Source of the DNA: a virus
Direction: 5' to 3' (one strand)
Length of the DNA: 64,000 nt
IMG/VR virus record: IMGVR_UViG_3300025133_000022
Location: 1-64,000 of that record
Position numbers and translations under genes: made by a program. The number at the start of each line of letters is the position of its first letter. Position 1 is the stretch's first letter. This document shows positions 15,791 through 54,188 of this stretch, one piece after another. The notes beneath the pieces were generated by a model. The model was not told where the DNA came from. It worked only from the letters and a program-made list of their open reading frames with translations, and made no database searches.

Positions 15791-15819
15791 GGGGTCCGTA
15801 GGACCCCTTATTTTATGAC
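15791..15819 (+). promoter_or_regulatory. Class I hairpin element (triloop, 15 nt, TGAC)
   Basis: GGGGTCC-GTA-GGACCCC TTATTTTA TGAC. Confidence 0.55.
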
Positions 15820-15836
15820 TCAGTCCAGGAGGGAAA

Positions 15837-16040
15837 ATGCCCATCAAAGTCGCGCACAACCTGCACTCACCATACTCAATGACTAACTTCAAAGTCATTG
15901 AGCTTTCACCAGAAACCCTTGCTAAGCTTCTCGGCAACTTGGCAGCGAAGCACGGCTTGTATGGTCAGGCACCAAACGAAGATGTAACCATTATGGGTTA
16001 CATCTTCAACAACGGCATCGCAGTTAACGTGCAGCACTGA
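15837..16040 (+). CDS. Hypothetical protein
   Basis: GGAGG RBS. Confidence 0.6.
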   Translation: MPIKVAHNLHSPYSMTNFKVIELSPETLAKLLGNLAAKHGLYGQAPNEDVTIMGYIFNNGIAVNVQH

Positions 16041-16098
16041 GCCCCACTCTGCAACGTTTCGGAGAATACATGAAACTCATCGCCACACTCCTTTGTAT

Positions 16099-16127
16099 GG
16101 CTCCCGCAGGGAGCCCTCTTATTTGAG
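16099..16127 (+). promoter_or_regulatory. Class I hairpin element
   Basis: GGCTCCC-GCA-GGGAGCC CTCTTATT TGAG. Confidence 0.55.
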
Positions 16128-16157
16128 ACATTTCGTCCCTCACAACCGGAGCCCACC

Positions 16158-16463
16158 ATGTCAGACCCTGCAGACAGCAACCGCCTTGCATTCGCCATTG
16201 CCAGCTTTATCTTTGGCGGAGGTATGATAGCTACCGTCGTAGCATTCACCGTCGTTCCCTTGTCGGAATTGATGACTTGGACGATAACTATCCTCCTGCC
16301 GGTCAGCGCAATCCTCATCGGAACAGGCCTCGTCACCAAGAGCACCTGGGACATGCTGTCTCAGGGAGTGAAGAAAGGCAAGCTCGACGAGCAAATCAAG
16401 CACTGGACAAGCGTGCTGGAGAAGAACCCAGAGGCGACAGTCGACAACACAATGTACAGCTAG
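16158..16463 (+). CDS. Two-TM membrane protein
   Basis: Two hydrophobic helices. Confidence 0.7.
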   Translation: MSDPADSNRLAFAIASFIFGGGMIATVVAFTVVPLSELMTWTITILLPVSAILIGTGLVTKSTWDMLSQGVKKGKLDEQIKHWTSVLEKNPEATVDNTMYS

Positions 16464-16535
16464 TCTGAGGGCCCCGTAAGGGCCCTTTTTTTATGAGACC
16501 CGTTCCTGGGTTTTACAACTACTTGGAGAGCTATC

Positions 16536-17183
16536 ATGCCAGTCATCACCCCCACCGAGAAGAGCTTCACAGTCGGCGAAGAAACCTTCGAAGCAATCTT
16601 AGAGCGCGTCAGGGACTCTCTCCACGAGAGCCTGCAGTGCGACATCCGCATCATCCGGAACGAAGCCAACGGCAACTATCAGTTGTCGTTCGACAACAGC
16701 CTCTTCGTCGGGGTGAATCGCAACCTTCCTCGTGAAGAGAACGATCGTCGTCGCAGCCAGGCCGTCGGGAAGCGCTTCGCACTCCTGGGTGCCCTGACCA
16801 ACGAGTTCGCCAAGCTCGGCCTGGAGTTCGGCAAGCACCTCGCGCCGCGCGATACCCGTCAGTCTACGGATGCCGATGGGAACCGACGATGGACCGCAAC
16901 GACGCAGTTGTGGATTAACATCCCGAACGCACAGAGTGCCGGAACAGCAGCTCCAGCCGCTACAGATGAAGACCTGATGGCCAATGCTTTGGCCATCAAC
17001 TCTGACAAGGCCGATGCCATCTTGGAGAAGGAGTCCAGCATCAATGCCGATGGCAAGCTCACGACCCTTGCCAGGGCTCGTCTGCGGGCACTCATCGCCA
17101 GCTCGATGACCAAGGACGTCCCTGCACCTACACCTACACCTACAACCGAGACTGCAGAGTCCAACAACATGCCGACCGACTAA
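16536..17183 (+). CDS. Hypothetical protein
   Basis: 215 aa with high codon bias. Confidence 0.8.
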   Translation: MPVITPTEKSFTVGEETFEAILERVRDSLHESLQCDIRIIRNEANGNYQLSFDNSLFVGVNRNLPREENDRRRSQAVGKRFALLGALTNEFAKLGLEFGKHLAPRDTRQSTDADGNRRWTATTQLWINIPNAQSAGTAAPAATDEDLMANALAINSDKADAILEKESSINADGKLTTLARARLRALIASSMTKDVPAPTPTPTTETAESNNMPTD

Positions 17184-17349
17184 GCATGTCCCTCCCTCGG
17201 GAGGGTTTTTATTTACCTAGGCAAGCAAAGCTTGCCCTGTGTATAGAGCCAGCCCCCCAACGGGGGGCGAACCCCCGATAGGGGGTGAGCGGAGTCCACT
17301 CCACTCTTTTTAGCTTATCTGAGCATGACTCGAACGCAGTGAGAGACTT

Positions 17350-17835
17350 CTAAACCCTCGATGCAATCTTCTTAACCTTATCCAAAAAGAACTCCCTAGA
17401 ATGGTTGTTCTTGGCCACGTTACAGAAACAACAGCAACTTACCAGGTTGTCGACTTGGTAACCCACATTATTGTCCACACGATCAAGACCCACGGTTTCC
17501 ACTATATCTCCACAGTATGCACAAGGTTTTTGCCAGAAACTTTTGAACTCTTCCAAGGCAAGACTCCAATCCTTACCCCTATCTAAAGCACTTTGCTTAC
17601 ACTTCTTATATCTCCCCACTGCGGATTTCCTATAGGTATAGTTGTACTCTCGTCTCTTCTCAGGAGGAAAGTACTTGGCCCGAGAAACCTTGGCGCAAGG
17701 TCTACATTTTCCCATCAAGCCATCTTTAGCTGCGCTATTCCGACCATATTCCCCCACAGGCTTAAACCTCTTGCAATCATAACATTGCTTGAGTGCTACT
17801 CCGTCTATCGTCTTGTGTCTTGTACTAGTCTTCAT
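17350..17835 (-). CDS. HNH homing endonuclease with N-terminal Zn finger
   Basis: CYDC..KP..EY..CRPC; CAYCG..GLDRVDNNVGY..NLVSCC..CN.AK. Confidence 0.8.
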   Translation of the reverse strand: MKTSTRHKTIDGVALKQCYDCKRFKPVGEYGRNSAAKDGLMGKCRPCAKVSRAKYFPPEKRREYNYTYRKSAVGRYKKCKQSALDRGKDWSLALEEFKSFWQKPCAYCGDIVETVGLDRVDNNVGYQVDNLVSCCCFCNVAKNNHSREFFLDKVKKIASRV

Positions 17836-18215
17836 AAGCTCACCGTAAACGAATTAAAGACATAAGTCAACTTTCAAGATGCTGGAAATCTCATATTAAA
17901 CAAAACTTGTCGAAATAGACACGAAATGAGTCTCCCTGGGAGACTCTTGTTCTAAACTGCACGAAAGTGTTAGAAACCGGTCTCTTTTGCTTAGAAGTGA
18001 TACAAGTAGGAGAAGTTTGAAATAGGGCTTAGCACCACGAACCATCATAAACCATCACAAACTGTTTTTCACCTAATTCCACGAACATACAAGCACTCCT
18101 TCCGCTCCCTCCAACGTTCCTGACGCTAAGTACTTGTACTTACTGCGTTTCCACACAGGGCCTAGAACCTCGCTTTCAACAAGTAAGGAACTGCACCTAC
18201 CACCATGGCGACAAA

Positions 18216-18515
18216 ATGTCCACAAGCATCGAAATCTACGGCTGGCCGCCCCAGCACAGCCGGGGACACTGGTACAGGCAAGTACGTACACAAGTACCTG
18301 CCTCCAGGCTCTCCAGAGCTCGAGTTCGTGATGAACTCGACATCCAATACCCAAGTGGAACTACAATCCGAGTACGAGTCTTTGCTATCCGGAGAAATCT
18401 CTCTACTGGTAATCAGACTCTACAAGTAGAAGCTAGTCCTTATGGACGTAAACTACATAAGCCTGTGGAGGGGATAAAGGTGCCCGCGAACTACAAACAC
18501 GCGAGGAAACGATGA
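18216..18515 (+). CDS. Hypothetical protein
   Basis: Co-oriented, overlaps next gene. Confidence 0.6.
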   Translation: MSTSIEIYGWPPQHSRGHWYRQVRTQVPASRLSRARVRDELDIQYPSGTTIRVRVFAIRRNLSTGNQTLQVEASPYGRKLHKPVEGIKVPANYKHARKR

Positions 18516-18970
18516 ACTTCCAAGAAATGCTTGCTGAAGCAACTCGACTTGAGGTCGAGGCTGCAAAACTCCGGACGAAAGCCAAACCACTCATTGGCAA
18601 AGCATTCGTCGACCTTCTTCAAAAGGGCTGCTGGAAGATCCGGAACGAAACTCTCTGCCCTGCCGACTCGGCTACTCGCAAAACAGCATACACCCTAGCG
18701 CAGGCCACTGGTGTCACCTGGTATCACGAGGCATTCAGCTTCTACTACGAAGAACTGCAGATCGAAGGCAAAACCGACGATGGAACTGTAACCTTCGATA
18801 TCTACAAACTTGCCAAATTAACCAACCTGCGAATCATCAACAGCAACAAGTGGATTCGCGCTGAGATTACTGAAATCAACAGACAAGCAGACGACCTACA
18901 AACCAGCCTTGTGAAACTTCTCTCTGAGCGAGACAAATTCATATCCATGCTCACTAAGGAAAAACGATGA
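18512..18970 (+). CDS. Hypothetical protein
   Basis: 152 aa, ATGA overlaps. Confidence 0.7.
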   Translation: MNFQEMLAEATRLEVEAAKLRTKAKPLIGKAFVDLLQKGCWKIRNETLCPADSATRKTAYTLAQATGVTWYHEAFSFYYEELQIEGKTDDGTVTFDIYKLAKLTNLRIINSNKWIRAEITEINRQADDLQTSLVKLLSERDKFISMLTKEKR

Positions 18971-19155
18971 GAAACTTCACCACCATCGAACGAGGAACTG
19001 TCAATGACATGCCGTATTACGTGGCACGTCGACACTCAGACGGATGGACAAGATGCTGGATCAAACGAGGCGATCGCAACATCCGTCGATCCATGAATTG
19101 GCTTCGCAAGCAGAAAAAGCTCAACACCGTTACAACCCACTGGAAAAAACAATGA
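18967..19155 (+). CDS. Hypothetical protein
   Basis: ATGA overlaps. Confidence 0.6.
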   Translation: MRNFTTIERGTVNDMPYYVARRHSDGWTRCWIKRGDRNIRRSMNWLRKQKKLNTVTTHWKKQ

Positions 19156-19355
19156 CCAAAATTCAAAAGGTCAAGGAACTACGACGTCGTACCGGATGCT
19201 CACTCTCTGAAAGCATGATGGCTCTACGACTTCATCACTACAACCTACAGGCTGCTACTACCCAGCTGCAAACAGGTAGTAGGAACTTTACTGCAATCCT
19301 AATCGACAAAATCCTGGCCTTAGAAGCCAGGATACAAGAACTAGAGGAACAATGA
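19152..19355 (+). CDS. Small protein with EF-Ts N-terminal / bL12-CTD-like helical domain
   Basis: KIQKVKELRRRTGCSLSESMMAL resembles KVKELRxxTGxxxxxCKxAL; C-terminal coil. Confidence 0.5.
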   Translation: MTKIQKVKELRRRTGCSLSESMMALRLHHYNLQAATTQLQTGSRNFTAILIDKILALEARIQELEEQ

Positions 19356-19636
19356 AACTCAAGAAACAAACTCCTCGACGTATCAGGCGTCGAGGATACG
19401 CTCTCTGCTGTAGGTGCGGGTGCGTTCTTCCGTCCACTAGCACCTGTTGCTATGCTTGTACTATCCAAACAACAGCAGGACCACCTCATGCCTCTACTTA
19501 GAGCAATTGCAGTAGCAGGAACAACAATTCTTGGTTTCGCCTTGCTCGCAGCTCTCAATGGCCACGAAATCTCTTTCATAATCTACATTCTCACTCCCCT
19601 GCTGACTGGTGGTGTCAGCACCATCCCAGAAGAACT

Positions 19637-19918
19637 ATGAGCAACTATGAAAGGGCTTGGAACAACTACATCATGTGGTGGCCCCTCAACCAAGAATGCA
19701 CAAAGTGCATTCACAAACAGAATATCGAACTCAAGGACATGCAAGCCCTCGGTATGTTCACCAGCGTGCAAGTACTGGATGACAAAGTCACCGGCTACGA
19801 AGCTAACGAAACCTCCCTGCTCTATCATGCAAGCAAATGCAAACTAAACAGGTTCCTGTCTCCTGGCTCCAACTGTTCTGGAAAGCAGAATAAAACACAA
19901 ACCTCAACGAGAACCTAA
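19637..19918 (+). CDS. Hypothetical protein
   Basis: ATGA overlap; Cys motifs. Confidence 0.55.
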   Translation: MSNYERAWNNYIMWWPLNQECTKCIHKQNIELKDMQALGMFTSVQVLDDKVTGYEANETSLLYHASKCKLNRFLSPGSNCSGKQNKTQTSTRT

Positions 19919-20145
19919 TGCATATACCAAACTACTGTGGCATGGCTATCCATAGCTACAATTGTATCAAGCATGGAAGCAACCCAAGTTCCTACCCAGC
20001 CAGTGGCACAGTCATGCTTCATGACAGCATGACATTTACCTTCATAGATCCGTCTGGCAAAATTCACATATGTCCAATAGCTGGCGCTATTCTTATGAAT
20101 GTAAAAGAAGTGGAAAACAGAGCTACAAGATATTCTCCCGCGTAA
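19918..20145 (+). CDS. Hypothetical protein
   Basis: TAATG overlap. Confidence 0.55.
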   Translation: MHIPNYCGMAIHSYNCIKHGSNPSSYPASGTVMLHDSMTFTFIDPSGKIHICPIAGAILMNVKEVENRATRYSPA

Positions 20146-20151
20146 ATCCAT

Positions 20152-20180
20152 GGCACCCGTAGGGTGCCTTCTCTTGTGAG
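20152..20180 (+). promoter_or_regulatory. Class I hairpin element
   Basis: GGCACCC-GTA-GGGTGCC TTCTCTTG TGAG. Confidence 0.55.
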
Positions 20181-20201
20181 ATTCAGACTCAGGAGAGAAC
20201 A

Positions 20202-20483
20202 ATGAATCCATTCGATAACCTAATTGCTGTTGCAACCTACAGCAACTACTCAACCTGTTTTATCAAAGAGCAAGCTGACAAGCACAATAAGCTACAGAAA
20301 GAAAGCATGTGGATGTGTGGTGCGCGCGACGGTAAAGATATCTTAAACCTCAGCCGTGTCAACGACGTTGTTTACCTGTTCACTCGTACTGGCACTGAAA
20401 ACACAGTCCAGCGTCTTCCTGGCGAACACAGTGCAGGCAAGCGGGAGCTCATCAAGCGCTTATTTCGCGCCAAATACAATTGA
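20202..20483 (+). CDS. Hypothetical protein
   Basis: AGGAG RBS. Confidence 0.7.
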   Translation: MNPFDNLIAVATYSNYSTCFIKEQADKHNKLQKESMWMCGARDGKDILNLSRVNDVVYLFTRTGTENTVQRLPGEHSAGKRELIKRLFRAKYN

Positions 20484-20488
20484 AAACA

Positions 20489-20517
20489 GGAGGCCACAGG
20501 CCTCCTTCTTCTTTGAG
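20489..20517 (+). promoter_or_regulatory. Class I hairpin element
   Basis: GGAGGCC-ACA-GGCCTCC TTCTTCTT TGAG. Confidence 0.55.
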
Positions 20518-20539
20518 CACTAACAGTTCTGGAGAATCA

Positions 20540-20827
20540 ATGAAAGAACTTACAAAACAGCTGCTGCTCGAAGCCGCTGAAGCCCTCGCGCAATGGAATC
20601 ACGGACAGGGCGTTAGCTGCGACAAAGATCTTATCCACAAGCTAAGAGAACACACCAACCCTCCCAAGCCCGTCTGGACAATCCTTAGTGGCTGCATTGT
20701 CCTTGGTGACACAGTACTTGGTTGGCACTGCCCAAACTACCGAGGCGAAGGTCCACCGATTTGCAACTACGAACTACATGGCGAAGACCAGTGTTCGTAC
20801 TGCGGTGAACCAGACGAGCGCAAGTAA
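20540..20827 (+). CDS. Hypothetical protein with C-terminal Cys motif
   Basis: GGAG RBS; HCP..C....CSYCGEPDERK. Confidence 0.7.
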   Translation: MKELTKQLLLEAAEALAQWNHGQGVSCDKDLIHKLREHTNPPKPVWTILSGCIVLGDTVLGWHCPNYRGEGPPICNYELHGEDQCSYCGEPDERK

Positions 20828-21056
20828 CCTGCTCTCTACATACGCAGTTTGTAATTAAGGCACCCCACTGGGTGCCTGTTCTTTATGAGCAAACTAATCT
20901 TGGGACTACCATGAACCTAATCGAACTAAATACCATCTCAACAACACGCTACCCATCGGGCATTGAGCTGACATACTCTAATGGCAATACGCTGTACTTG
21001 CCATACTTCAGTTTTGTGACAGTTGGAGTAGCTGCTGACAACTGGCTGGAGAACTC

Positions 21057-21380: not shown

Positions 21381-21434
21381 GAACCCTTGAAAGGGTTCTT
21401 TTCTATGAGTACGACTGCAACTCATGGAGCAACT

Positions 21435-22444: not shown

Positions 22445-22507
22445 CTAAGGCCCCCGTAAGGGGCCTTCTTCTATGAGTACTTACACTCATTCGCCACGGA
22501 ACCACCA

Positions 22508-22702: not shown

Positions 22703-23017
22703 ACGTCCAACAAATGGTATGCCTCGCCATGGACAATAACTGGCCTGCTGAAAGTCCAGAAGCATGGGAAGCAGCATGGACAGTAGGTGGCATTCAACAC
22801 ACCATACAAGCCCTGGGTGATGCACCATCAAGTACGAATATGTCATCCAACATGAAGATGACAAGTTCGCCCTGACTCTTAAAGGCAGTGAATACTGGCT
22901 AGCAAACTTCTCTGAAGGCTTCAACGACAGAAACACCAAGTAGCAATCAAACTAACCCAGCCCCCATCAGGGGGCTTACTTATTGAGTATTTCCACTCTA
23001 TTCTCACAAGAGTCACC

Positions 23018-24731: not shown

Positions 24732-24855
24732 AGCTAGAGCGGGCGTAGCCCGCTTTTTATTGTGAGTATTTGTGGTGGTCCATACATGCTTTTAGAGAAG
24801 CCCTATCCCAGGGGCTTCTCTTTGAGGACTTTGCGCCTCCCAACAAAGGACCACC

Positions 24856-26800: not shown

Positions 26801-26859
26801 GAAAGATTCCTAAGACCCTCCGAAAGGAGGGTCTTAAATTGAGAGAACACACCATCTTA

Positions 26860-26887
26860 GCAGCGCGTAGCGCTGCTTGTGGGGTGA
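26860..26887 (+). promoter_or_regulatory. Class II hairpin element
   Basis: GCAGCGC-GTA-GCGCTGCT TGTGGGGTGA. Confidence 0.5.
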
Positions 26888-27070
26888 CAAGGTGTAGCCG
26901 TAGGCGAGAATCACCGAGTCCGTTCAACCAAACAAGACCGACGGTTAAAATGGCCGGTGGACCCGTCTTACCCTCCTTGTAGAGGTACATTTATACAACA
27001 TGCATTTAAAAGCAACTTCCGTACGAAATTGGTACCAGTTTCGACCAGTTGCGCTAATGCAAACGTATAC

Positions 27071-27112
27071 TCATGGGTGGCGCGCAGCGCCACCTGTGGG
27101 GCGAGAGTAGGT
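27071..27112 (+). repeat. 42-nt exact repeat (copy 1) containing a class II hairpin element
   Basis: TCATGGGTGGCGCGCAGCGCCACCTGTGGGGCGAGAGTAGGT, identical to 61175-61216. Confidence 0.9.
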
Positions 27113-28155
27113 GGTTACCTACTCAAGCTTGACTTCATGTCCAAAGGTACTGCAACTCCTAGAGTCCAGAAGCCTGACCACATGAGCAAAGTACATTGAT
27201 CTGAAACTTAGACACTGTTCTCCAAAAAGGAGTCTAGGACGAGGCTCTACAGATCATACCCAAGCCAGGTGTCTGGTCCTTCGGGACAGGGCCCTGGGGC
27301 GGCTTAGCGTCCATTAGGATAATCTGCGGTAACGCAGGAAAGGGAGAACAGACAAACTCCCGCCAATTAGTGCTTGCACTAAGGTCCAGCTAAGCAATCT
27401 CAGACTTCAGGTTAAAACCTGGACTATCACTTCAGTGGTGGGATAGTCGGTAAGTTGTAGGATGGAGAGATAAGCGATGTCTAACCCGGAGCAGTAGCAA
27501 TACTATTCGTAAGGAAGCACGTGAAGAGGTCCTGGGAAGGATTACCTCCATCCAAATCCATGCAACGAACGAGGAAAGTCAAGAGAAGTTGCGTTCATAA
27601 GGAGCAAAGCCAGCTCCCAAATAGTCCAATTGGGTAGAACCATAGGGCACGCAGCAGTACGGAGGATGAAAGGTCACAAACCTGGAATCCAATGACACCG
27701 GTAAAGGCGGCTACGCCGAATGCCACGAGAGAGTGTGGGACTTTGCAAACCAAAAGTTTGCGAACCTACTCGTCAAAGCACTCTCTCAGTCTGGGCTCAC
27801 GCTCGGAGTAAATCGAGCACTCCAAATTAAACAACGGAATCAAAACGCAAAAGTCTTTGACGACTATGAAGTGAAAGCAGCCTAAGACCAAGCCTCAAGA
27901 GGTCCTTGGTGTATGGAGTCCCGCAAGGACAAAATACTTGGTAGCTAGAAAGCATATGTGGACCCGCAATTCCACAAATGCAAGAAAGCGCCGATCAGCT
28001 CATAGTAAGGGAGACTGGAACCCTCAAAAGACCAGTGGCTGTGGCATGTACCTGTGGCAACACAGGTGGACACGTTCTTAGCTATTAGGCCTCGCAGCCT
28101 AATCGGTACGGGAATTAAAGAATGACCACAAGAAGACTTAATCTCAGTCTTCTCT
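27095..28155 (+). ncRNA. Large structured ncRNA, GOLLD-like
   Basis: About 1 kb with no credible long ORF and dense hairpins. Segments GCAATCTCAG, GGTTAAAACCTGGACTATC, GTCTAACCC, GAGTCCCGCAAGG, GNRA hairpin+GGACACG and a terminal TAATCTCA-loop hairpin resemble GOLLD motifs as recalled (not searched). Confidence 0.55.
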
Positions 28156-28558
28156 TCCTTCTCTTTTGTAATCTTGATTTGCAAAAGAGAAATCAGATTA
28201 TGAGGGTGGGTAAAACCACCCTCTAATTTTCTATATCAGGACAAACCATGTTTATTTCAGCCTGCCTTGCCATCTTGGTATATGCTGCTCTAAATAAAGT
28301 TTGCGACTGGCTAGAAAGAACAGGTTGCTTGTTCGCAATCTTGCTTATTTTCGCACTATCAATGTTAGCTTTTAAATGCATTGTAGCTGTTGAGCAAGAA
28401 TTCTGGAGCATTCTAAACCTCTGAGCGATGCATCGCTCATGTCGCTACGGTACACCACTGAACCGTACAGGCTTGGTAACGTCAGAAGAGCTCGAGCAAT
28501 CTTCTTGAAGTCAGCCCGACGAACTACTCACCCTCCAACGCCACCCCTGGAGATCCTC

Positions 28559-28966: not shown

Positions 28967-29028
28967 TGCCAGAGCCCGCTAAAAGCGGGCTTTTAAATTG
29001 AGTATTCACACCGCAACACGAGTAATTC

Positions 29029-29328: not shown

Positions 29329-29360
29329 GCACTGAGTCCGGCTTAGCCGGACTTTTATAT

Positions 29361-29920
29361 TGAGTGGCTTAGTCACCCCAATTCCTCTGCAAGTAATTGC
29401 CTTGACGTGGCGCAGAGGCTTTAAACTAAAATTACAGTTCTTGGCGTGTCCCCTAATCTCACGCGTCTGCCGAATTCTAGCAAATTGCCCACCAAGGGAG
29501 TATAGCAAGCTTCCAGAAGCTAGAAGCAGGAACATAAGGGGTTCGCTGGTTGAAAAGCCACGAAGTACGAAAGTACGTAGGGTAAGTCAAGGAAATAATC
29601 AAGCATCCTTGTACCTGAAGAATTTTAGCCAAAACGGCAATCGAATGGTATTCGAAGCTGATATACAAGTAGATGTAAGCCATAGTTAGGTACTTCTATA
29701 CCGGTCAATGCCCTAAGGTAGACTGCAAGAATACAGTCCTATGTTTTCTGCTGGCAACGAGTGCATGCACGGAAAGTTCAGAATTAGAACTGCACTCACC
29801 CTTACCTCTGTGGCCTAATCGGCATAGGCACACGATTCAAAACCGTGCACCCACAACAAGTACACTTAAGTGGAAAGTGAGGGGGATATGAGTTCGAAAC
29901 TCATCAGGGGTTCCACTTCT
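29361..29920 (+). ncRNA. Large structured ncRNA, ROOL-like candidate
   Basis: About 560 nt starting at the TGAG of a class I element. Many GNRA/UNCG-type hairpins; ATTGCCTTG near the 5' end, AGCTGATATACAAGTAGAT centrally, terminal AAGTGGAA/TTCCACTT stem enclosing a T-loop hairpin. Confidence 0.45.
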
Positions 29921-32585: not shown

Positions 32586-32614
32586 GCCCCGCTTAGCGGG
32601 GCTTCTTTTGTGAG
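32586..32614 (+). promoter_or_regulatory. Class I hairpin element
   Basis: GCCCCGC-TTA-GCGGGGC TTCTTTTG TGAG. Confidence 0.55.
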
Positions 32615-33529: not shown

Positions 33530-33558
33530 GGCGTGCGTAGCACGCCTTCTTAGTTGAG
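33530..33558 (+). promoter_or_regulatory. Class I hairpin element
   Basis: GGCGTGC-GTA-GCACGCC TTCTTAGT TGAG. Confidence 0.55.
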
Positions 33559-33971: not shown

Positions 33972-34465
33972 ACATCTTCCTGAGTTGGCAGAAGCCAGTC
34001 GATTTCGACCTGCTGATCATCGGCCAGAGATCCGATGGCTCCCACCACGCCTTCTACTTCGGCAACAAAACCGGTACGGGTATTCAGCTCGGCGAAGATG
34101 CTGGTGTGGGTGACTCCGGAGACAGCAACAACGAAGAAGCCACCATCGATGCCAGCTTCTGGGACACCTACGAAAAAGCACTGGTCGGAATCATCGACTA
34201 TCCAAACGTCAGCGCCGGACAGAACGGACGGTTCGACACCGACACCCCGACAGTCATGGTCATGGGCATGGATGCTGGTGGCTCTCAGGTGGTTGACCAC
34301 CTGGCACGCCCAGATGGTGGAACACTCGATGGCAATGCCTATGCGGTGGCCAAGCTCACCCGCAGTGGCCCTGTCACCCGCTTCGAGGTCGTAAGCGAAG
34401 AAACCCTTCTGAAGGGTTTCGACGGTACAGCCATCGAAAACTGGGCCAGAGGCATTCTCGCCTAA
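33914..34465 (+). CDS. TerD/TerA-like stress protein
   Basis: L.W..VDFDL, FYFGN, I.LG.DAGVGD..D.NNEE. Confidence 0.75.
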   Translation: MELTAKGASANIPPNVASLNIFLSWQKPVDFDLLIIGQRSDGSHHAFYFGNKTGTGIQLGEDAGVGDSGDSNNEEATIDASFWDTYEKALVGIIDYPNVSAGQNGRFDTDTPTVMVMGMDAGGSQVVDHLARPDGGTLDGNAYAVAKLTRSGPVTRFEVVSEETLLKGFDGTAIENWARGILA

Positions 34466-34592
34466 AGCTACTAGTTTCAGTCGAAACACATAGCTCACAA
34501 ACCGGGGTGCGTAGCACCCCCTTTTCTTCGGGCTTGATTAAAGCCATTCGAATTAAATCTCCTACAACTTCCTCCAACAGTTGAGACTCACA

Positions 34593-35003
34593 ATGACAAT
34601 CGTGACCCTTCTCTCCCTCGTAAGTGCAACCTTGACCGCCTTGAGTGCCTCTGTCAAGGCCGATGGTGTCGTCGACGCCGACGAAGTCAACTCCCTCGAA
34701 AGCGAAATCTACGCCGACGGGTCTGTCGATGCTGAAGAAGTCGCTGTCCTCTTCGACATCGCCGACAACTGCACCTATGACTCCAACTTCGAGAACCTCG
34801 TCAGTCGCGCCGTGCGCGACTGGGCCTACGCCGATGGCTCTGTCGATGCCAGCGAAGCCACCCACCTCCGCTCCTTCATCGAAGCCGACGGTGAGTACTC
34901 GGATCTCGAGATCCGCATCCTCAACGAGATCTTGAACTCCGGAGCCAGCATGCCCGACGACTTCAAGAGCTGGGCCAGCGGCATCGTGAACCATCCTGAT
35001 TGA
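34593..35003 (+). CDS. TerB-like protein with acidic ADGxxDxxE repeats
   Basis: ADGVVDADEV, ADGSVDAEEV, ADGSVDASEA, ADGEYSDLE. Confidence 0.65.
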   Translation: MTIVTLLSLVSATLTALSASVKADGVVDADEVNSLESEIYADGSVDAEEVAVLFDIADNCTYDSNFENLVSRAVRDWAYADGSVDASEATHLRSFIEADGEYSDLEIRILNEILNSGASMPDDFKSWASGIVNHPD

Positions 35004-35088
35004 TTTGTATCAAATCAAACCTGAAGCCCCTGCCACGGCAGGGGCTTCTTGTTGTGAATTCTTTCCAGCTTCAACCCCAAGGACCACT

Positions 35089-37428: not shown

Positions 37429-37486
37429 TATTAAAGTGGGACAATGCGTCCCACTTCTTAATTGAAACACAAACAGAAGAGAATTA

Positions 37487-39597: not shown

Positions 39598-39675
39598 TGC
39601 AACGTAGCTCAGCGGTAGAGCAGCTCGCGCACAACGCCTGGTTTGTCGGTGGTTCAAATCCACCCGTTGCAACCA
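39598..39675 (+). ncRNA. tRNA-like RNA with non-pairing anticodon arm (pseudo-tRNA)
   Basis: Perfect acceptor TGCAACG/CGTTGCA-ACCA, canonical D and T arms; the 25-nt middle lacks a 5-bp stem and U33. Confidence 0.7.
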
Positions 39676-48780: not shown

Positions 48781-48855
48781 GGCCGGTTAGCTCAGTGGGA
48801 GAGCGTCCCCTTTACACGGGGAGGGTCACAGGTTCGATCCCTGTACCGGCCACCA
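48781..48855 (+). tRNA. tRNA-Val(TAC)
   Basis: GGCCGGT/ACCGGCC-ACCA; loop TTTACAC. Confidence 0.92.
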
Positions 48856-48866
48856 CAAGGAACATC

Positions 48867-49100
48867 ATGAAACGAAAACACTTGCTAACTCGAAAAGGGA
48901 TTTACTGCGGGGAAAAGGAAACTCCAGGCAACTGGACTACAAACACCTCCCTCGATCTCAATCAGCCAATTGTCGTTACCTGTTCTGAGTGCAGACTTCA
49001 CCTTCGGCAACGGCACAAAGACAAGGAAAACATGAAGAAAACCTTCACCTCCACCCTCATTGCCGTATTGTCATTCCTTTCAGGAACGTACATTAGTTAA
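48867..49100 (+). CDS. Hypothetical protein
   Basis: AAGGA RBS; C..C motif. Confidence 0.55.
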   Translation: MKRKHLLTRKGIYCGEKETPGNWTTNTSLDLNQPIVVTCSECRLHLRQRHKDKENMKKTFTSTLIAVLSFLSGTYIS

Positions 49101-49221
49101 ACGAGAGTGGCGAAATTGGCAAACGCGACGATCGAGGAAAACCTAATGGTTTAGAGAACAACTTTCCAAACTCGCCTGAAGACTAACCATCCGATTATAG
49201 GTTCGAGTCCTGCCTCTCACA
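49101..49221 (+). ncRNA. tRNA-like RNA with about 70-nt insert replacing the anticodon arm
   Basis: GAGAG/CTCTC acceptor core, Leu-type D arm TGGCGAAATTGGCAAACGC, T arm AGG-TTCGAGT-CCT; insert forms ATCG/CGAT and ATGGT(T)TAG/CTAACCAT helices. Confidence 0.65.
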
Positions 49222-49237
49222 TACACAAAGGAAAACA

Positions 49238-49684
49238 ATGACTAAATTGCATTATTTCAACTTTAGTTGGGGGCATGTTGAAAGCAGTAGGATTGCTATG
49301 CTGCCAAGCTGGTACCACGCTGTGGGTTTCGACACCGTAGAGGCAGCTGCCGAAAGTTTTGCTCGCTGCTTGATGACACAGGTACCGCCAACTAAAATGT
49401 GCCCAATTCATGGCAAGCACAATAGCCACTTCTGCCCCGACTGTGGCACAGCGACCACTGTCGGACAATTAAGTGAAGATTGGCAATTCGCTTACGAATT
49501 CTTCAACAACCTATACGTCACAACAGCCAACGACTCACCCAGCAGTGACACTAACGACTGGGACAGAAACTGGTACGCTGAATGGGAAGTCATTGAAACT
49601 GCAGGCATGAAGCCAATTGTAGTAGAATGTTTCGACCGATACCTGGAGACAGGCGACCCAGAAGAACTAATTTGCGATGAATAG
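49238..49684 (+). CDS. Hypothetical Zn-ribbon protein
   Basis: CPIH..FCPDCG. Confidence 0.7.
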   Translation: MTKLHYFNFSWGHVESSRIAMLPSWYHAVGFDTVEAAAESFARCLMTQVPPTKMCPIHGKHNSHFCPDCGTATTVGQLSEDWQFAYEFFNNLYVTTANDSPSSDTNDWDRNWYAEWEVIETAGMKPIVVECFDRYLETGDPEELICDE

Positions 49685-49688
49685 AAAT

Positions 49689-49765
49689 GGGGTGTTGGTC
49701 TAGTCTGGTTAAGACGCCGGCCTGTCTCGCTGGTAACACGGGTTCAAATCCCGTACACCCCGCCA
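49689..49765 (+). tRNA. tRNA-Asp(GTC)
   Basis: GGGGTGT/ACACCCC-GCCA; loop CTGTCTC. Confidence 0.9.
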
Positions 49766-49826
49766 CCCAAGGAGTCAAAAAAAATGGAAGAGCACTTTCG
49801 CTGAGCTACTTATAAAGGAGCCAGCA

Positions 49827-50045
49827 ATGCACACTAACCATAGACATACGCGGTTAAAGCGCAAAAAGCGCAACAAATATAAATACGATATGCGCAGCCT
49901 AAAACCACCCAAAGATTGGGCATATTTTAGAGCCGCAGAGCAAGAGTGCTTCAACCGAATCCTTCAGGAAGAAGATCCAGATGATATAATCTGGCCTACT
50001 AAGTTAAAGCATATTCCAATCTACAATCCACGTTCATATGATTAA
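49827..50045 (+). CDS. Basic hypothetical protein
   Basis: AAGGAG RBS. Confidence 0.6.
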   Translation: MHTNHRHTRLKRKKRNKYKYDMRSLKPPKDWAYFRAAEQECFNRILQEEDPDDIIWPTKLKHIPIYNPRSYD

Positions 50046-50295
50046 TCTAGGCCGCTATAAGCGGCCTTTGCTTTACGAGAAACCAATGCAATGGAAAACC
50101 AAAAGAAAACTTAAATTAGGTGACACTAGACGACGCCATGTTTTTGCATGGCTTCCTACAGAACTTAATGACGGTACAAGCGTATGGCTAGAAAACTATA
50201 TGCTTGTAGAAGTCTGGTTTCTACACGAAACAGCACATGAAGCATTAGACTATGAGTTCTGGTCTGTAGCAAACAGACTACCAATAGACAACTAA
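50038..50295 (+). CDS. Hypothetical protein
   Basis: FAWLP...WLE.Y motif. Confidence 0.6.
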   Translation: MINLGRYKRPLLYEKPMQWKTKRKLKLGDTRRRHVFAWLPTELNDGTSVWLENYMLVEVWFLHETAHEALDYEFWSVANRLPIDN

Positions 50296-50297
50296 CT

Positions 50298-51314
50298 ATG
50301 TTCGAGAAAACCTCAATGAATTCTAAACCAGCGTTACACTACTGGGAGCACGTCAAGATAGCTATAAGTCTTGACACAAACGTATTTAAACTCATTTTTA
50401 CTAAAAAAGATGCAGTTGCAGAAGCAGTGCTTTACCGCTATGGTTCTTTTGCCAAACGAACGGTAATCTGCACCAGTACCCAAAGCGGCTGTCCTATGGG
50501 TTGCCGATTCTGCGGAGCCGGTGAATACTTCAACCGAAGCCTGACGGCCGAAGAAATCTTCGAACAAACCACAGTTGCCATGCAGCTTGTAAAACTGTTA
50601 GAAAATATCAACAGTACTAACATCGACAGCATGCAAATCATGTTCATGTCCATGGGCGAACCTACACTCAACCAGAAAAACCTAGCCACTGCAATCAGGA
50701 AGCTACACTCTTGGTACCCTGAATCAGCACTGCTTATCAGCACCAGTGCACCCCGTGTTAGCTACGATGAAATTTTCAAAGTCTCAGCCGAGATTAATAA
50801 AGTTGGACTGCAATTCAGTGTACATGAAAGCACTGACGAAGCTCGCAACAAACTCATCCCTATCAAAGGCAAGCTGACTCTTCGAGAGATCAGCCACCTT
50901 GGCAACGCCTGGGCAATGACCACTGGCAGAACTCCGTTTTTCAACTACTGTGTTCATCCAACAAACAACAGTATCGAGGACGCTGAGCGACTCTGGAACC
51001 TCTTCAGTCCCATGGTCTGGCAGGCAACCATCTCTGTCATTTGCGAACGCACAGAAAGCGTCGCAGCAGCCAACATCCGGCAGCGCAAACTCGCAACGAA
51101 CTTCGAGAAACACTTAATGGAACGAGGCTTTAGTACTCGTACTTTCGACCCTGCAGGACAAGATGACATTGGTGGAGGTTGTGGACAGCTTTGGTTTGTC
51201 CAAAAATGGCTACGAGAACATCCAGAACATGCCAAAAAGACTTGTGGAACTGGCCTACCTCAAGTGCACACTCCCACAGTGAACCCAATTAACGAAAAAA
51301 CCACATTAGAATAA
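50298..51314 (+). CDS. RlmN/Cfr-like radical SAM RNA methyltransferase
   Basis: STQSGCPMGCRFC, MSMGEP, ISTS, SVH, DIGGGCGQL. Confidence 0.85.
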   Translation: MFEKTSMNSKPALHYWEHVKIAISLDTNVFKLIFTKKDAVAEAVLYRYGSFAKRTVICTSTQSGCPMGCRFCGAGEYFNRSLTAEEIFEQTTVAMQLVKLLENINSTNIDSMQIMFMSMGEPTLNQKNLATAIRKLHSWYPESALLISTSAPRVSYDEIFKVSAEINKVGLQFSVHESTDEARNKLIPIKGKLTLREISHLGNAWAMTTGRTPFFNYCVHPTNNSIEDAERLWNLFSPMVWQATISVICERTESVAAANIRQRKLATNFEKHLMERGFSTRTFDPAGQDDIGGGCGQLWFVQKWLREHPEHAKKTCGTGLPQVHTPTVNPINEKTTLE

Positions 51315-51329
51315 AACCCATGATTCAGA

Positions 51330-51358
51330 GCCCGGCATAGCCGGGCTTTTTAATTGAA
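51330..51358 (+). promoter_or_regulatory. Class I hairpin element
   Basis: GCCCGGC-ATA-GCCGGGC TTTTTAAT TGAA. Confidence 0.55.
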
Positions 51359-51391
51359 ACTTTATTAAAGCTTCTAAAAACGAGGTACTTT

Positions 51392-52096
51392 ATGTCAAAC
51401 CCAACTCAATGGGACGTAGGAGGCTACGTCCGCGATGAACTCCTAGGTATTCCTAGCAAAGATCGCGACATTATGGTTGACCTGCCAAGCTACGAAAAAC
51501 TAGAAGCATGGGCAGAACAACATCTAACAAAAATCTATGAACGACGTCCTGAAATGCTTATCTTGCGAGGACACGGCCCCCTGGGGCCAGTCGATTACAA
51601 CCTCCCGCGCAACGAATCAGCCTACAGTGACAGCAGAACTCCAAACTCAGTAACGGTAGGCACTTTCGAGCAAGATATGGCTCGCAGAGATTTTACTTGT
51701 AATGCTATTGCCAAAAACATTGCAACCGGTGAAATCATAGACCTCCATGGAGGAATGTTAGACATCAATATGCGACGACTACGAATGGTAGGAAGCGCTT
51801 ACGCACGCCTTGATGAAGACCACCTACGAATTGTTCGTGCAATTCGATTCTGCATCACCAAAGGTTTCACACCATATGGAGAATTAGAGAAAATTCTACT
51901 ACATGGTGAATATGCAGATAAACTAGAATCCCTACCTGTTGAACGCATTGCAAATGAAATGTGTAAAGCATTTCATTTCAATACTGCATCAACACTGCAC
52001 TTTCTTGCGTCAATTCATCCAAAATATACAGAAGCCATCTTCTCAAAAAGACTCTGGCTACTACCAACCTTAAAAAATCGCAAATCTGCGGGATAA
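51392..52096 (+). CDS. tRNA nucleotidyltransferase (CCA-adding / polyA polymerase family), compact
   Basis: VGGYVRD..LG..DRD, DMARRDFTCNAIA, EDHLRIVRAIRF, ERI..E..K. Confidence 0.9.
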   Translation: MSNPTQWDVGGYVRDELLGIPSKDRDIMVDLPSYEKLEAWAEQHLTKIYERRPEMLILRGHGPLGPVDYNLPRNESAYSDSRTPNSVTVGTFEQDMARRDFTCNAIAKNIATGEIIDLHGGMLDINMRRLRMVGSAYARLDEDHLRIVRAIRFCITKGFTPYGELEKILLHGEYADKLESLPVERIANEMCKAFHFNTASTLHFLASIHPKYTEAIFSKRLWLLPTLKNRKSAG

Positions 52097-52100
52097 CCAT

Positions 52101-52691
52101 ATGGTATTTGACATAAAGAAACGCCTCAGAGCATTTCTACGAGATCCACCCGACACCACTCGTGAAGAACTTCCAGAATCAGAAACAGAATGGTATTCCG
52201 TCCTATCAGAAGAACAAAAAGAAGAAGAAAGAGAAACATGGACATTAAAAGAAATGTCCGTTCAGCTCATTGAAGAAGCTCGAGCAACTGTTTCTCTAAT
52301 GAGTAAATGGGTGCCTGACGAAAAAACACTTTCTGAAGTCGCAAAACTTCTTCCAGAAGACAAAAAAGAATTAATCAACTCTCCCGAATTGTCTGAATTA
52401 ATTACAGAAATTCAAGACAAATACGTTTCTCAACCATTCTTAACCAAATACTTTGAACGCTTGCACAGCTTTCAAGAAGATGTTGCTAATCTTGAAAAAG
52501 ATGACCACATTATGCACTACTTAGAAGTAAGCACAATGGCTAGTCAACTAGCTCAAATCATGGTGATTTCAACTCAAGCCCTAATTGCTAAAGCGTATGC
52601 TTTTAGACTTAAGGAACTTGAAAAAACTAAAGAACCAGCCGCAGAGCAACCCAATTGGACAACTTGGGGTGGAGTTACCGGTGAAGGATAA
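52101..52691 (+). CDS. Acidic helical hypothetical protein
   Basis: 196 aa. Confidence 0.7.
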   Translation: MVFDIKKRLRAFLRDPPDTTREELPESETEWYSVLSEEQKEEERETWTLKEMSVQLIEEARATVSLMSKWVPDEKTLSEVAKLLPEDKKELINSPELSELITEIQDKYVSQPFLTKYFERLHSFQEDVANLEKDDHIMHYLEVSTMASQLAQIMVISTQALIAKAYAFRLKELEKTKEPAAEQPNWTTWGGVTGEG

Positions 52692-52938
52692 ATTCTTACT
52701 CTGGCTAGAGCAATACATCCTAAATTCAGATTGGCTGTACTTCACTTCCGCATTCTACTGGGCGAGAAACAGAGAGCGAATTCGCCAAAAACAAGAATAT
52801 GAAGTACGCAAAGCTAAAGACAAAACCAAACTAGACAGCTCTGTCAAAACAATTCTCGATCACTACAACGAAACTGGCAAATCACCAAAAGTCATTATGG
52901 ACTATGGTACCAGACTAGAAGCATTCTACGAGGAATAA
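52681..52938 (+). CDS. Hypothetical protein
   Basis: GTG start with GGAG RBS. Confidence 0.6.
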   Translation: MKDKFLLWLEQYILNSDWLYFTSAFYWARNRERIRQKQEYEVRKAKDKTKLDSSVKTILDHYNETGKSPKVIMDYGTRLEAFYEE

Positions 52939-52941
52939 GCA

Positions 52942-53760
52942 ATGAGCAGAACAATCTTCATCGGAGACGTACATGGATGTTTAAAAGAACTTCAAGAACT
53001 TATTTGTAAGATACACTTACATCAAAACGACCATCTTGTTTTCGTTGGAGATCTGATTCATAAAGGACCCGACAGTACAGGAGTTCTTGAATATGTTCTC
53101 AACTTAACGAAAACATATAAAGTTGATATCATTTGTGGAAATCATGAAGAAAAACATCTTCGCTGGCTAAAAACAGAAGCATCTTGTCTTAAAACAAACA
53201 CTAAGAACACAATGCTACACGTAGAAGAATACCCATCGGTCAACGTCTCAAGCGAAGTCAAAGAACTTCTAGAAAACACCTACATTGCAAAAAAATACAA
53301 TAACACTGTAGCTGTACATGCTGGCATCCCTAGCAATTTGCTAGAACTCAAATGCATAACACATGCCGAGTGGTCTGCAACTAGCGGCAAACAGAAACGC
53401 GCTCTTGCTCAAGTTATGAGAGTTCGATTCCTTGCTGGACCCAACAGAACTAGCACAAATAGCAAAGGCAAAACAAAGAAAGTACAAATGGGCAAAATGA
53501 TTGCCCTTGGTCAAGAAAAACCAGAAGACAACTACTGGGCTAACGTTTATGATGGACGCTTCGGAACAGTAGTTTTTGGACACAACCCATTTATGGAAAA
53601 CAAGCCAAGAATCTTTCCCTATGCCTTTGGGGTTGACCTAGGATGCGTGCACGGAGGCTACCTCTGTGCACTAATCAAGAAAAATAAAACCACTACACAC
53701 GTTGTAGTCAAAGCAAAACAAACCTATCAAAAAAGTCCATCTTGGATTTACAAAAACTAA
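52942..53760 (+). CDS. PPP-family metallophosphoesterase (PrpE/ApaH/Pnkp phosphatase-like)
   Basis: GDVHG, GDLIHKGP, GNHE, HAG, FGH, DLGC.HGG.L. Confidence 0.9.
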   Translation: MSRTIFIGDVHGCLKELQELICKIHLHQNDHLVFVGDLIHKGPDSTGVLEYVLNLTKTYKVDIICGNHEEKHLRWLKTEASCLKTNTKNTMLHVEEYPSVNVSSEVKELLENTYIAKKYNNTVAVHAGIPSNLLELKCITHAEWSATSGKQKRALAQVMRVRFLAGPNRTSTNSKGKTKKVQMGKMIALGQEKPEDNYWANVYDGRFGTVVFGHNPFMENKPRIFPYAFGVDLGCVHGGYLCALIKKNKTTTHVVVKAKQTYQKSPSWIYKN

Positions 53761-53770
53761 AGGAACCAAA

Positions 53771-54127
53771 ATGTTATTTTGTCATGCACTCGTTGCTTAC
53801 ATGTATAAAAATGACCCCACTGAACGCACAACCCGATGTACATTTGCGGTCCGGCAAGACGAAAACCAAACATACTCATATGCAACCGCGTGGGCCTCTC
53901 CGTCAGACAACTTCGCTAAGAGGATTGGCCGACAGATCGCCCACGCTCGCCTAATCAACAACTCCCCCGTTCATGTCAATAAAGTAACTACTGGCGCTGA
54001 AAATTATCGTGACATCCTGAAAACAGTCATGGCCGACGCTATGGACAAAGGGCCATCTCGATGGACTGTCACAGATATCACATTCTTCAAAACTACCAGT
54101 GATGCAATTCTCGCACAGACTCAATAA
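53771..54127 (+). CDS. Hypothetical protein
   Basis: A.ASP.DNF.KRIGR.IA..R motif. Confidence 0.65.
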   Translation: MLFCHALVAYMYKNDPTERTTRCTFAVRQDENQTYSYATAWASPSDNFAKRIGRQIAHARLINNSPVHVNKVTTGAENYRDILKTVMADAMDKGPSRWTVTDITFFKTTSDAILAQTQ

Positions 54128-54188
54128 ATCAAATTCTAGAGACACACAAGCCGCCTTTAAGGCGGCTTCTTATTTGAAGGAGTGACTT

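Follow-up and report, generated by a model that had tools for sequence, protein, structure and literature searches.

To our knowledge, very few single-chain two-barrel RNA polymerases (RNAPs) of phages have been studied, i.e. YonO, phi14:2 gp66 and the P23-45 proteins gp64 and gp96, and we know of mapped promoters only for those of P23-45; hairpin promoters are likewise known to us only for the enzyme of phage N4, which is unrelated. Here we describe a repeated intergenic element, referred to as class I, in a 64,000-nucleotide (nt) stretch of DNA (the window), which comprises bases 1-64000 of the 192,537-bp IMG/VR virus record IMGVR_UViG_3300025133_000022. The element consists of a GC-rich hairpin, a T-rich spacer and the tetramer TGAG or a close variant of it. 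Judging from its anatomy and from the comparisons presented below, we lean towards the view that it serves the phage's own transcription system as a compact cassette of terminator and promoter. The two-barrel RNAPs of the phage itself provide the key context for interpreting it.

The one related system with mapped RNA ends is phage P23-45 (Chaban et al. 2024, PMC10770324). Its virion polymerase, gp96, starts transcription directly after TTATTCYTTTA, the next bases being TGG. The seven sites mapped for gp64 carry a GC-rich box, which reads TCTAGrGGC in most of them and ends with GGC in six; T-rich or mixed sequence follows the box, and the start is located after GG or GA, 8-10 nt from the box in five of the sites. 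A 26-nt pre-early terminator motif was also defined, in which a hairpin whose loop-arm junction reads YTAG is followed by a T tract and a G, and terminators and promoters alternate along the pre-early genes at distances of 6-49 nt (PMC10770324).

As in P23-45, the phage described here encodes a homologous two-barrel RNAP, and its small early genes would each have their own promoter and hairpin terminator. The P23-45 terminator motif resembles the class I hairpin, in which the loop regions cGTAg, cTTAg and cATAg occur. Unlike in P23-45, the terminator hairpin and the putative promoter are fused here into a 29-nt unit of fixed geometry, each copy of which is a full palindrome, whereas the gp64 promoters have a fixed TCTAG box and no hairpin. 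Of that box, the two systems have in common only TAG or NAG where loop and arm meet (A at position -16 in 18/22 class I copies and G at -15 in 14/22). The gp64 spacing, i.e. a box ending with GGC or GsC, approximately 7-10 nt of T-rich sequence and a purine start, is matched by class I and by 5/7 of the P23-45 sites. At TSS18, the P23-45 site closest to class I, the genome reads GGC-TTCTTAT-TGA|G; its parts correspond to the end of the class I 3' arm, the spacer and TGAG, and transcription was mapped to start at the last letter of the tetramer.

Composite terminator/promoter motifs have been reported as PeSLs (promoter-early stem-loops) of T4-like phages (Comeau et al. 2014, PMC4122927; Arbiol et al. 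2010). PeSL and class I share a stem-loop just 5' of a promoter (here a presumed one), repeated between small variable early open reading frames (ORFs) of a large myovirus, with a ribosome-binding site and a start codon coming next. They differ in that the PeSL promoters are of the sigma-70 type (-35/-10), are read by the host RNAP and lie 3' of the stem-loop without overlapping the U tract, while no sigma-70 enrichment was found here and the candidate is a phage polymerase. In the case of the N4 virion RNAP, the promoter hairpins have a 5-7 bp stem and a 3-nt loop, and the variable stem bases need only to pair (PMC4496689). Class I has the same stem and loop format, a loop of the G-N-A type and a comparable 'molecular ruler' stretch from the hairpin to the presumed start. 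The N4 enzyme is T7-like, whereas the candidate here is two-barrel; the N4 loop centre is at -11, whereas for class I, with 17 nt between the loop centre and the T of TGAG, a position of about -18 to -20 is predicted; and N4 has only three promoters, at the genome end that is injected first, whereas class I has 22 copies spread over 15.8-80.6 kb. Moreover, the N4 hairpin is read on the template strand, needs supercoiling and single-stranded DNA-binding protein, and has neither a U tract nor a terminator role.

The GC-rich stem-loop, A-rich 5' flank, T-rich 3' tail and location just after stop codons are shared with canonical intrinsic terminators. Unlike these, class I has an invariant TGA(G/A) exactly 8 nt after the GC core, a sister class free of the U tract, and lineage-specific loops, distinct from the UUCG and GNRA loops of other terminators of the same genomes. 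Thus, composite cassettes (with sigma-70 promoters) are known from T4-like phages and separate promoter and terminator motifs from P23-45; our literature search yielded no description of a fused element of fixed geometry or of promoters for this branch of polymerases.

Anatomy, distribution and placement of class I

All coordinates given below are window positions on the plus strand, unless called genome positions. A preliminary description of the window had listed 18 sites and two looser ones (26814 and 35026), at which a hairpin is followed by TGAG, TGAA or TGAC at a set distance. All 20 sites are composed of a perfect GC-rich hairpin (7-11 bp, mostly with a triloop), an 8-nt T-rich spacer and then TGAG (15 sites), TGAA (4) or TGAC (1), and the 15 nt that had been counted from the triloop to TGAG correspond to a 7-nt 3' arm plus the 8-nt spacer. 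Two more copies are present beyond the window, which makes 22, all of them intergenic and on the plus strand, and weaker variants were found at 24800, 46010, 50050 and genome position 83451. The copies and variants are as follows:

15791..15819, plus strand: class I, hairpin GGGGTCC-GTA-GGACCCC, spacer TTATTTTA, TGAC; orthologous hairpins in the related loci L017, L018, L019 and L021
16099..16127, plus strand: class I, loop GCA, spacer CTCTTATT, TGAG
16469..16497, plus strand: class I, loop CGTAA, spacer TTTTTTTA, TGAG
20152..20180, plus strand: class I, loop GTA, spacer TTCTCTTG, TGAG
20489..20517, plus strand: class I, loop ACA, spacer TTCTTCTT, TGAG
20859..20889, plus strand: class I, 4-nt loop, 9-nt spacer, TGAG
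21381..21409, plus strand: class I, AT-richer stem, TGAG; covariance model E 0.12
22449..22477, plus strand: class I, spacer TTCTTCTA, TGAG
22960..22987, plus strand: class I, loop ATCA, spacer TTACTTAT, TGAG
24739..24766, plus strand: class I, loop GTA, TGAG
24800-24826, plus strand: weak second copy about 60 nt 3' of the 24739 copy, with a G-T pair in the stem
26814..26843, plus strand: looser class I, 11-bp stem, GAAA loop, TGAG
28974..29002, plus strand: class I, spacer TTTTAAAT, TGAG
29336..29364, plus strand: class I, loop TTA, spacer TTTTATAT, TGAG
32586..32614, plus strand: class I, loop TTA, spacer TTCTTTTG, TGAG
33530..33558, plus strand: class I, hairpin GGCGTGC-GTA-GCACGCC
35026..35058, plus strand: looser class I, 11-bp stem, TGAA
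36170..36198, plus strand: class I, loop TAA, spacer TTCTTAAT, TGAG
37436..37466, plus strand: class I, 5-nt loop, spacer TTCTTAAT, TGAA
46010..46037, plus strand: variant, hairpin, spacer TTTAGGTA, AGAA; covariance model E 0.005
50050..50078, plus strand: variant, hairpin, 9-nt spacer, CGAG
51330..51358, plus strand: class I, loop ATA, spacer TTTTTAAT, TGAA
54150..54178, plus strand: class I, loop TTA, spacer TTCTTATT, TGAA; ribosome-binding site immediately 3'
Genome positions 76012 and 80588, plus strand: class I, beyond the window
Genome position 83451: weaker variant, beyond the window

The position matrix of the 22 copies reads G-s-C-C-s-C-C / [G/T]-T-A / G-s-s-G-G-s-C / T-T-y-T-T-w-w-T / T-G-A-G, the consensus from the 3' arm on being sGGGsC-TTyTTwwT-TGAG. 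The letters T, G and A of TGAR are invariant (22/22 copies), and spacer positions 1, 2, 4 and 5 are T in 16-20 of the 22. The earlier remark that the stems differ holds in so far as the copies have 22 distinct hairpin sequences, all with perfect stems (mean length 8.3 bp, mean free energy -14.8 kcal/mol); the stems are not free in sequence, as the 5' arm is C-rich, the 3' arm G-rich, and the loop usually has a final A before the closing G (cNNAg). The 5' flank is A-rich and often pairs with the first Ts of the spacer. From the loop centre to the T of TGAR there are 17.0 nt in 16/22 copies.

The fixed geometry stands out against the background of the genome. Among 104 strong plus-strand hairpins found genome-wide, TGA is located at offset 8 from the GC core in 22 and GAR at offset 9 in 24, compared with 0-8 at other offsets and 0-6 on the minus strand (binomial P about 6e-12), so that the enrichment, for which the preliminary description had proposed a genome-wide motif check, is evident. 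In a gap-free alignment of 16 copies, 98.2% of the cells pair and 37 cells are changed on both sides; two-sided changes affect all seven pairs, and the observed level of covariation is reached in 0/500 shuffles. A covariance model built from these 16 copies gave 24 plus-strand matches at E<=0.01, none of them past 83.5 kb, and a single minus-strand match, which is the mirror reading of a palindromic site. The hairpin-offset counts, the strand bias and the range of the covariance-model matches demonstrate that the class I element is real, strand-specific and confined to 15.2-83.5 kb.

We also scanned the genome with a matrix devoid of the left arm, i.e. with the A of the loop, the 3' arm, the spacer and TGAG. 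It gave 21 plus-strand matches of at least 14 bits, all intergenic and each with a full hairpin, and two minus-strand matches, which lie in genes and have no hairpin; no half-site lacking the left arm scored above 14 bits on the plus strand. The 12-mer of spacer plus TGAG was rejected as a sufficient promoter, as its hairpin-free chance matches amount to 51 on the plus strand and 132 on the minus strand. A dispersed repeat resembling repetitive extragenic palindromes (REP) or miniature inverted-repeat transposable elements (MITE) was considered as well and does not agree with the 22 distinct hairpin sequences and the presence of all copies on the plus strand only.

In most copies the hairpin starts 0-22 nt 3' of an upstream plus-strand stop codon, and 14-42 nt separate TGAR from the next start codon; this interval holds a ribosome-binding site of its own, of the GGAG type. 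As the upstream genes end 5' of the hairpin and the start codon has this GGAG closer to it, TGAG is neither the upstream stop codon nor a ribosome-binding site. In the distant relative L012, the corresponding GGAG doubles as the ribosome-binding site in some copies and not in others. A class I copy directly precedes 18 of the 66 plus-strand genes between 15.3 and 55 kb.

In a generic terminator scan (15-35 kb), 54 sites were detected versus 23.6 +/- 4.8 expected, and the class I copies were all detected and top-ranked. The scan for sigma-70-like promoters in the same region gave 16 versus 18.4 +/- 4.1 expected, i.e. no enrichment, and none at class I sites. Beyond fragments of tRNAs, ribosome-binding sites and class I or II elements, no other intergenic hexamer was prominently repeated. 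5' stems of at least 4 bp whose start falls within 4 nt of TGAG are found in 59% of cases versus 32% at other TGAR sites (P = 0.002).

The phage polymerase, its relatives and class II sites

The region rich in class I copies begins shortly after the gene of the candidate non-virion RNAP, the first copy being located 560 nt 3' of it:

11957..15229, plus strand: gene of a 1090-aa single-chain two-barrel RNA polymerase (candidate non-virion RNAP), assigned from the fold model, Foldseek and a conserved motif

The AlphaFold model of the 1090-aa protein (pLDDT 84, pTM 0.77) was matched by Foldseek to QDE-1 (E 7e-12), plant RDR2, P23-45 gp96 (8H2M) and the phi14:2 virion RNAP, as well as to P23-45 gp64 / P74-26 gp62 (8F72, 8F5M) with E 6e-6 and a TM of 0.43-0.44 on the target. 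The motif QGDDDGDE is invariant across 17 homologs. An hhalign comparison with gp64, of low probability, aligned the catalytic motifs only (DDDGD with DYDGD and IQEAIDSQK with IQVAVDRQK), and a sequence search of PDB with the 1090-aa protein, both as a single sequence and as a profile, gave no match, the enzymes having diverged too far for sequence search. Based on the structural model, the gene product has the fold of a two-barrel RNAP related to P23-45 gp64. A candidate virion polymerase of 1707 aa has a single DMDGD motif as its sole support and showed no similarity to the polymerase profile in hhalign. No sigma-70 region 2 was found in the genome, and there was no match to T7-like RNAP (PF00940), for which control genomes were likewise silent.

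A single-protein scan of IMG/VR revealed no close relative of the polymerase. Its nearest homologs, P0003, P0005 and P0007, are 79%, 63% and 60% identical and come from contigs of 104-192 kb. With the polymerase profile, eight loci from IMG/VR (26-31% identity) and six from metagenomes (32-48%) were collected. In these relatives, runs of hairpins with T-rich spacers and purines are found 3' of the polymerase gene, on its strand only. The tetramers are TGAG, TGAA, TGAC, CGAG or TAGA in L017, L018, L019, L021 and L022, and GG or GA takes their place in L009, L012 and L013. Across ten relative loci (RNAP 26-48% identical), the onset of GA or GG falls at offset 8 after T-tailed hairpins in 27/72 cases, compared with 1-5 at offsets 4-7 and nothing on the opposite strand. 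TGAG itself recurs down to a polymerase identity of 32%, and the covariance model matches L017, L018, L019, L022 and L013, always on the gene strand.

The 147-aa gene that follows the polymerase gene is conserved in L017, L018, L019 and L021. At the site 3' of this gene all five genomes have a hairpin, in which 9/12 pairs are compensatory and after which TGAC, TGAG, TAGA, CGAG and TGAC are found. The element is thus conserved across the clade together with compensatory changes in its stem. The loops 3' of the polymerase gene are of the cNNAg or cTNACg form (CTGACG, CTCACG, CACAG, CATAG, CGCAG, CGTAG), while those 5' of it are the usual stable RNA tetraloops of the UUCG and GNRA types (CTTCGG in 8 cases, and CGCAAG). 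The distance from the loop centre to the T is 18 nt in L019 and L021, compared with 17 nt in the phage described here.

In L018, whose polymerase is 47% identical, two of the four elements carry TAGA in place of TGAG at the set distance (L018:6590-6622 and L018:6955-6987), and in the more distant L012 and L013 the position of the tetramer is taken by GGAG, GGTC or GACC. From the aligned sites it seems that the initiator-like tetramer drifts along with the polymerase. In L019 (9667-9720), a hairpin, TTTTCGTT and GGAG lie directly 5' of a sequence with a tRNA T-arm (GGTTCGAATCCC), an arrangement reminiscent of permuted-tRNA Y RNAs.

A sister class of sites, class II, retains the hairpin, the 8-nt spacing and GAG and is devoid of the U tract, its spacers being such as TTGTGGGG. 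Both halves of the intrinsic-terminator anatomy, the stem-loop and the 3' U tract, are present in class I, and the latter is missing from class II. Class II sites are located at 15229, 26860, 27076, 61127, 61180 and genome position 67268; together with one class II-like site, those in the window are:

15229..15257, plus strand: class II, hairpin, spacer GTATTGGG, CGAG; a 5' hairpin comes next, then a plain terminator at 15291
17220..17248, plus strand: class II-like, hairpin, spacer CTGTGTAT, AGAG; 15 nt 3' of a plain terminator (17190), with a GC-rich structured stretch next
26860..26888, plus strand: class II, hairpin, spacer TTGTGGGG, TGAC
27076..27105, plus strand: class II, hairpin, TGTGGGG, CGAG; at the 5' edge of an ORF-free stretch with GOLLD RNA
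61127..61155, plus strand: class II, hairpin, spacer TTGTGGGG, CGAG
61180..61209, plus strand: class II, 42-nt block identical to the 27076 block; heads a second ORF-free stretch

Among 55 intergenic strong hairpins (15-84 kb), N-GA-R stands at offset 8 in 27, compared with 0/20 hairpins within genes. The tail is T-rich in 17 of these 27 and not in the other 10, which indicates that the link between hairpin and GAR is independent of the U tract. At 17220, only 15 nt after a plain terminator, another terminator would serve no purpose.

Several class II sites adjoin non-coding RNAs or candidates for them. A GOLLD RNA (Rfam RF02032) was identified at 27726-28150 with 156 bits versus a gathering score of 150. 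The match covers the 3' part of a 1.1-kb ORF-free stretch, which is closed by a plain terminator at 28202, and the complete GOLLD RNA probably extends over approximately 27100-28225. The ORF-free stretch 61180-61860 opens with the 42-nt block TCATGGGTGGCGCGCAGCGCCACCTGTGGGGCGAGAGTAGGT common to the GOLLD locus; it had no Rfam match at the gathering score and may encode another large non-coding RNA. The stretches 15255-15315 and 17245-17330 resemble small-RNA units, in which a class II hairpin, N8 and (C/A)GAG are followed by a 5' hairpin or GC-rich structure and a T-tailed terminator. One and the same hairpin, GGCGTGCGTAGCACGCC, occurs at 15229, 33530 and genome position 67268 with three different spacers (GTATTGGG, TTCTTAGT and TTGTGGAT).

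A putative terminator-promoter cassette and the rival explanations

From the above, we infer for class I both a termination and a promoter activity, a start site and the polymerase that would read the element. In the RNA, the GC-rich hairpin with the T-rich 8-mer would terminate the transcript of the preceding gene. In the DNA, a promoter of the 1090-aa polymerase would be formed by the G-rich 3' arm including its loop-arm junction (..TAG-sGGGsC), the T-rich 8-mer and TGAG; transcription would start at one of the purines of GAG, at a distance of approximately 18-20 nt from the centre of the loop. A single stretch of 8 nt would serve both as the U tract and as the region melted in the promoter, which would explain the fixed distance. 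The outcome would be many transcription units of one to three genes in the early and middle region, and class II would represent the same promoter minus the terminator function, serving non-coding RNAs. Initiation at GAG is suggested by the fixed TGAG, the purine start conserved in relatives, the P23-45 site TSS18 and the presence of the U-tract-free class before non-coding RNAs. Of the three options offered in the preliminary description, terminator-reinitiation is therefore favoured by the hairpin and T tract after stop codons and by the signs at GAG, and a ruler-based hairpin promoter and a processing signal are less so.

Several observations weigh against the terminator-promoter cassette. 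The gp64 promoters of P23-45 have no hairpin, and in them the box lies 2-3 nt closer to the start than is proposed here. The P23-45 terminators TTS3 and TTS5 have TGAG 9-11 nt after the stem and no mapped start there, so TGAG could belong to termination. The promoter and terminator halves are inseparable in silico, because the 12-mer is unspecific and every high-scoring site has the left arm. The excess of 5' stems next to TGAG is weak, and the folding energy of the leaders is the same as in controls. Finally, plus-strand genes that follow minus-strand genes or tRNAs (39.6 kb, 55.4 kb) are partly without a class I copy, hence other promoters must exist. In the P23-45 genome (L023, NC_009803), TTS3 and TTS5 followed by TAGTGAGCCGTACG are found at 39640-39672 on the minus strand; we found no mention of the TGAG after them in the text and supplements of PMC10770324 that were consulted.

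The main rival, that class I is a terminator only, with TGAG acting as a polymerase-specific downstream element, appears unlikely to us. According to this explanation, the hairpin and the U tract would stop the phage or host polymerase, TGAG could be a pause or release signal that makes the U preceding G, 8-9 nt beyond the stem, the last base of the RNA, and the downstream genes would be expressed by read-through or from unrecognised promoters. Both the anatomy and the placement of the element are those of canonical terminators, and the P23-45 terminator motif is alike (YTAG, T tract, G), two of its instances having TGAG and no mapped start. The consensus elemental pause of bacterial RNAP has a Y(-1) G(+1) step, which is matched by the T followed by G. 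This explanation does not account for the hairpin-N8-YGAG arrangements with spacers that are not U-rich (10/27), for their presence at the 5' edge of non-coding RNAs or for the conserved A and R after TG. It would also leave the phage polymerase without a recognisable promoter in the region, and a strong stop after nearly every small gene would silence the genes downstream. Strand switches were considered as a means of telling promoters from terminators and rejected, since the apparent minus-strand gene 34374-34994 is rivalled by equally good plus-strand ORFs, with which both hairpins become intergenic; the genuine minus-strand genes are flanked by tRNAs.

A structure-dependent promoter of the N4 kind, in which an extruded DNA hairpin is bound, the spacer serves as a ruler to the GAG start and termination is secondary or absent, seems decidedly improbable. 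It would agree with the complete palindrome at every high-scoring site, with stems that covary while the loop family is conserved within lineages, and with class II, which has the hairpin and no U tract. About half of the loops have the form c-GNA-g and so belong to the highly stable kind of DNA triloop used by N4, and the distance from the loop centre to the T is constant (17 nt; 18 in L019 and L021) despite stems of 9-11 bp that leave a free spacer of 5-7 nt. An alternative reading of the long stems, however, is that additional pairs extend into a spacer that is still 8 nt long, and the GNA-type loop is here on the non-template strand. Furthermore, the homologous P23-45 enzyme uses double-stranded promoters that are not hairpins, and a T-rich spacer placed after stop codons is exactly what a terminator needs. 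It is rather unlikely, in our opinion, that the two functions are combined in such a way that the two-barrel (cellular-type) phage RNAP reads its promoter as a hairpin structure, with a ruler of 17-18 nt from the loop to GAG, and uses the same hairpin as its RNA terminator. If true, a hairpin-reading two-barrel polymerase would represent a convergence with the unrelated T7-like N4 polymerase.

Least probable, and very doubtful to us, is RNA processing or stabilisation, i.e. that a phage or host endonuclease cuts polycistronic RNA at U|GAG, a fixed distance 3' of the hairpin, so that a hairpin is left to protect the 3' end of the upstream mRNAs and the cut sets the 5' ends of both mRNAs and non-coding RNAs. 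The element is indeed strand-specific, intergenic, co-oriented with genes and at a fixed distance from a short conserved motif; copies precede non-coding RNAs, whose ends need defining, and genes for handling RNA are numerous in the phage (RNA ligase, Ro60, tRNAs). On the other hand, such a cut needs no U-rich spacer, no candidate site-specific endoribonuclease was identified, and both the match to mapped starts of a homologous polymerase and the lack of any other promoter motif favour initiation.

For a marine branch of two-barrel polymerases that is both new and widespread, the terminator-promoter cassette offers a concrete and testable candidate for promoter and terminator. If confirmed, it would allow the 1090-aa enzyme to be used in transcription assays in vitro, delimit the transcription units of an uncultured phage clade and show stop and start signals packed into 29 nt. 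Should the hairpin be required for initiation, the element would provide a test of hairpin reading by cellular-type polymerases.

Probable pre-early cassettes and genome layout

Cassettes of another kind are located 5' of the polymerase gene, each composed of a hairpin, (T)TTTTATGG and a small 5' hairpin:

7571-7603: pre-early cassette
9670-9702: pre-early cassette
10063-10105: pre-early cassette
10430-10465: pre-early cassette
11432-11467: pre-early cassette

Their 3' part comprises the small 5' hairpin (ATGGCA..TGCCAT), a ribosome-binding site and ATG. The cassette has hardly changed in relatives with polymerases of only 29-48% identity, and ATGGCAATCAAGCCATGTCCTGGAGGACA is identical in L017. 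As TTTTATGG matches the mapped P23-45 virion-RNAP promoter TTATTCYTTTA|TGG, the cassettes are likely pre-early promoters, judging from this analogy. Their location 5' of the polymerase gene, with class I and class II 3' of it, suggests a cascade, in which the virion polymerase would read TTTTATGG and thereby express the non-virion polymerase, which in turn would read class I and II.

The genome belongs to an uncultured marine phage with a contractile tail (myovirus), as the tail sheath, portal, large terminase and rIIA were matched; matches to other families were few. It also encodes a Ro60/TROVE protein, an RNA ligase, a class II ribonucleotide reductase and a primase-helicase, and 11 tRNA genes are present in the window. 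No near DNA match was found in the phage collection searched. Window positions 1-535 are repeated at genome positions 192003-192537 with 99.1% identity; this 535-bp sequence may be a direct repeat of the genome termini, or else the genome may be circularly permuted and the repeat an overlap left by assembly, the record itself being classed as linear without end repeats. Genes were called with a home-made caller based on codon usage. Nearly all genes from 8.3 kb to approximately 130 kb are on the plus strand, and the structural genes, from 131 kb on, are on the minus strand. Within the window, a 900-bp ORF-free region (7400-8300) divides the leftward from the rightward gene blocks and contains, after the first pre-early cassette, repeated hairpin units with CTAGGA.

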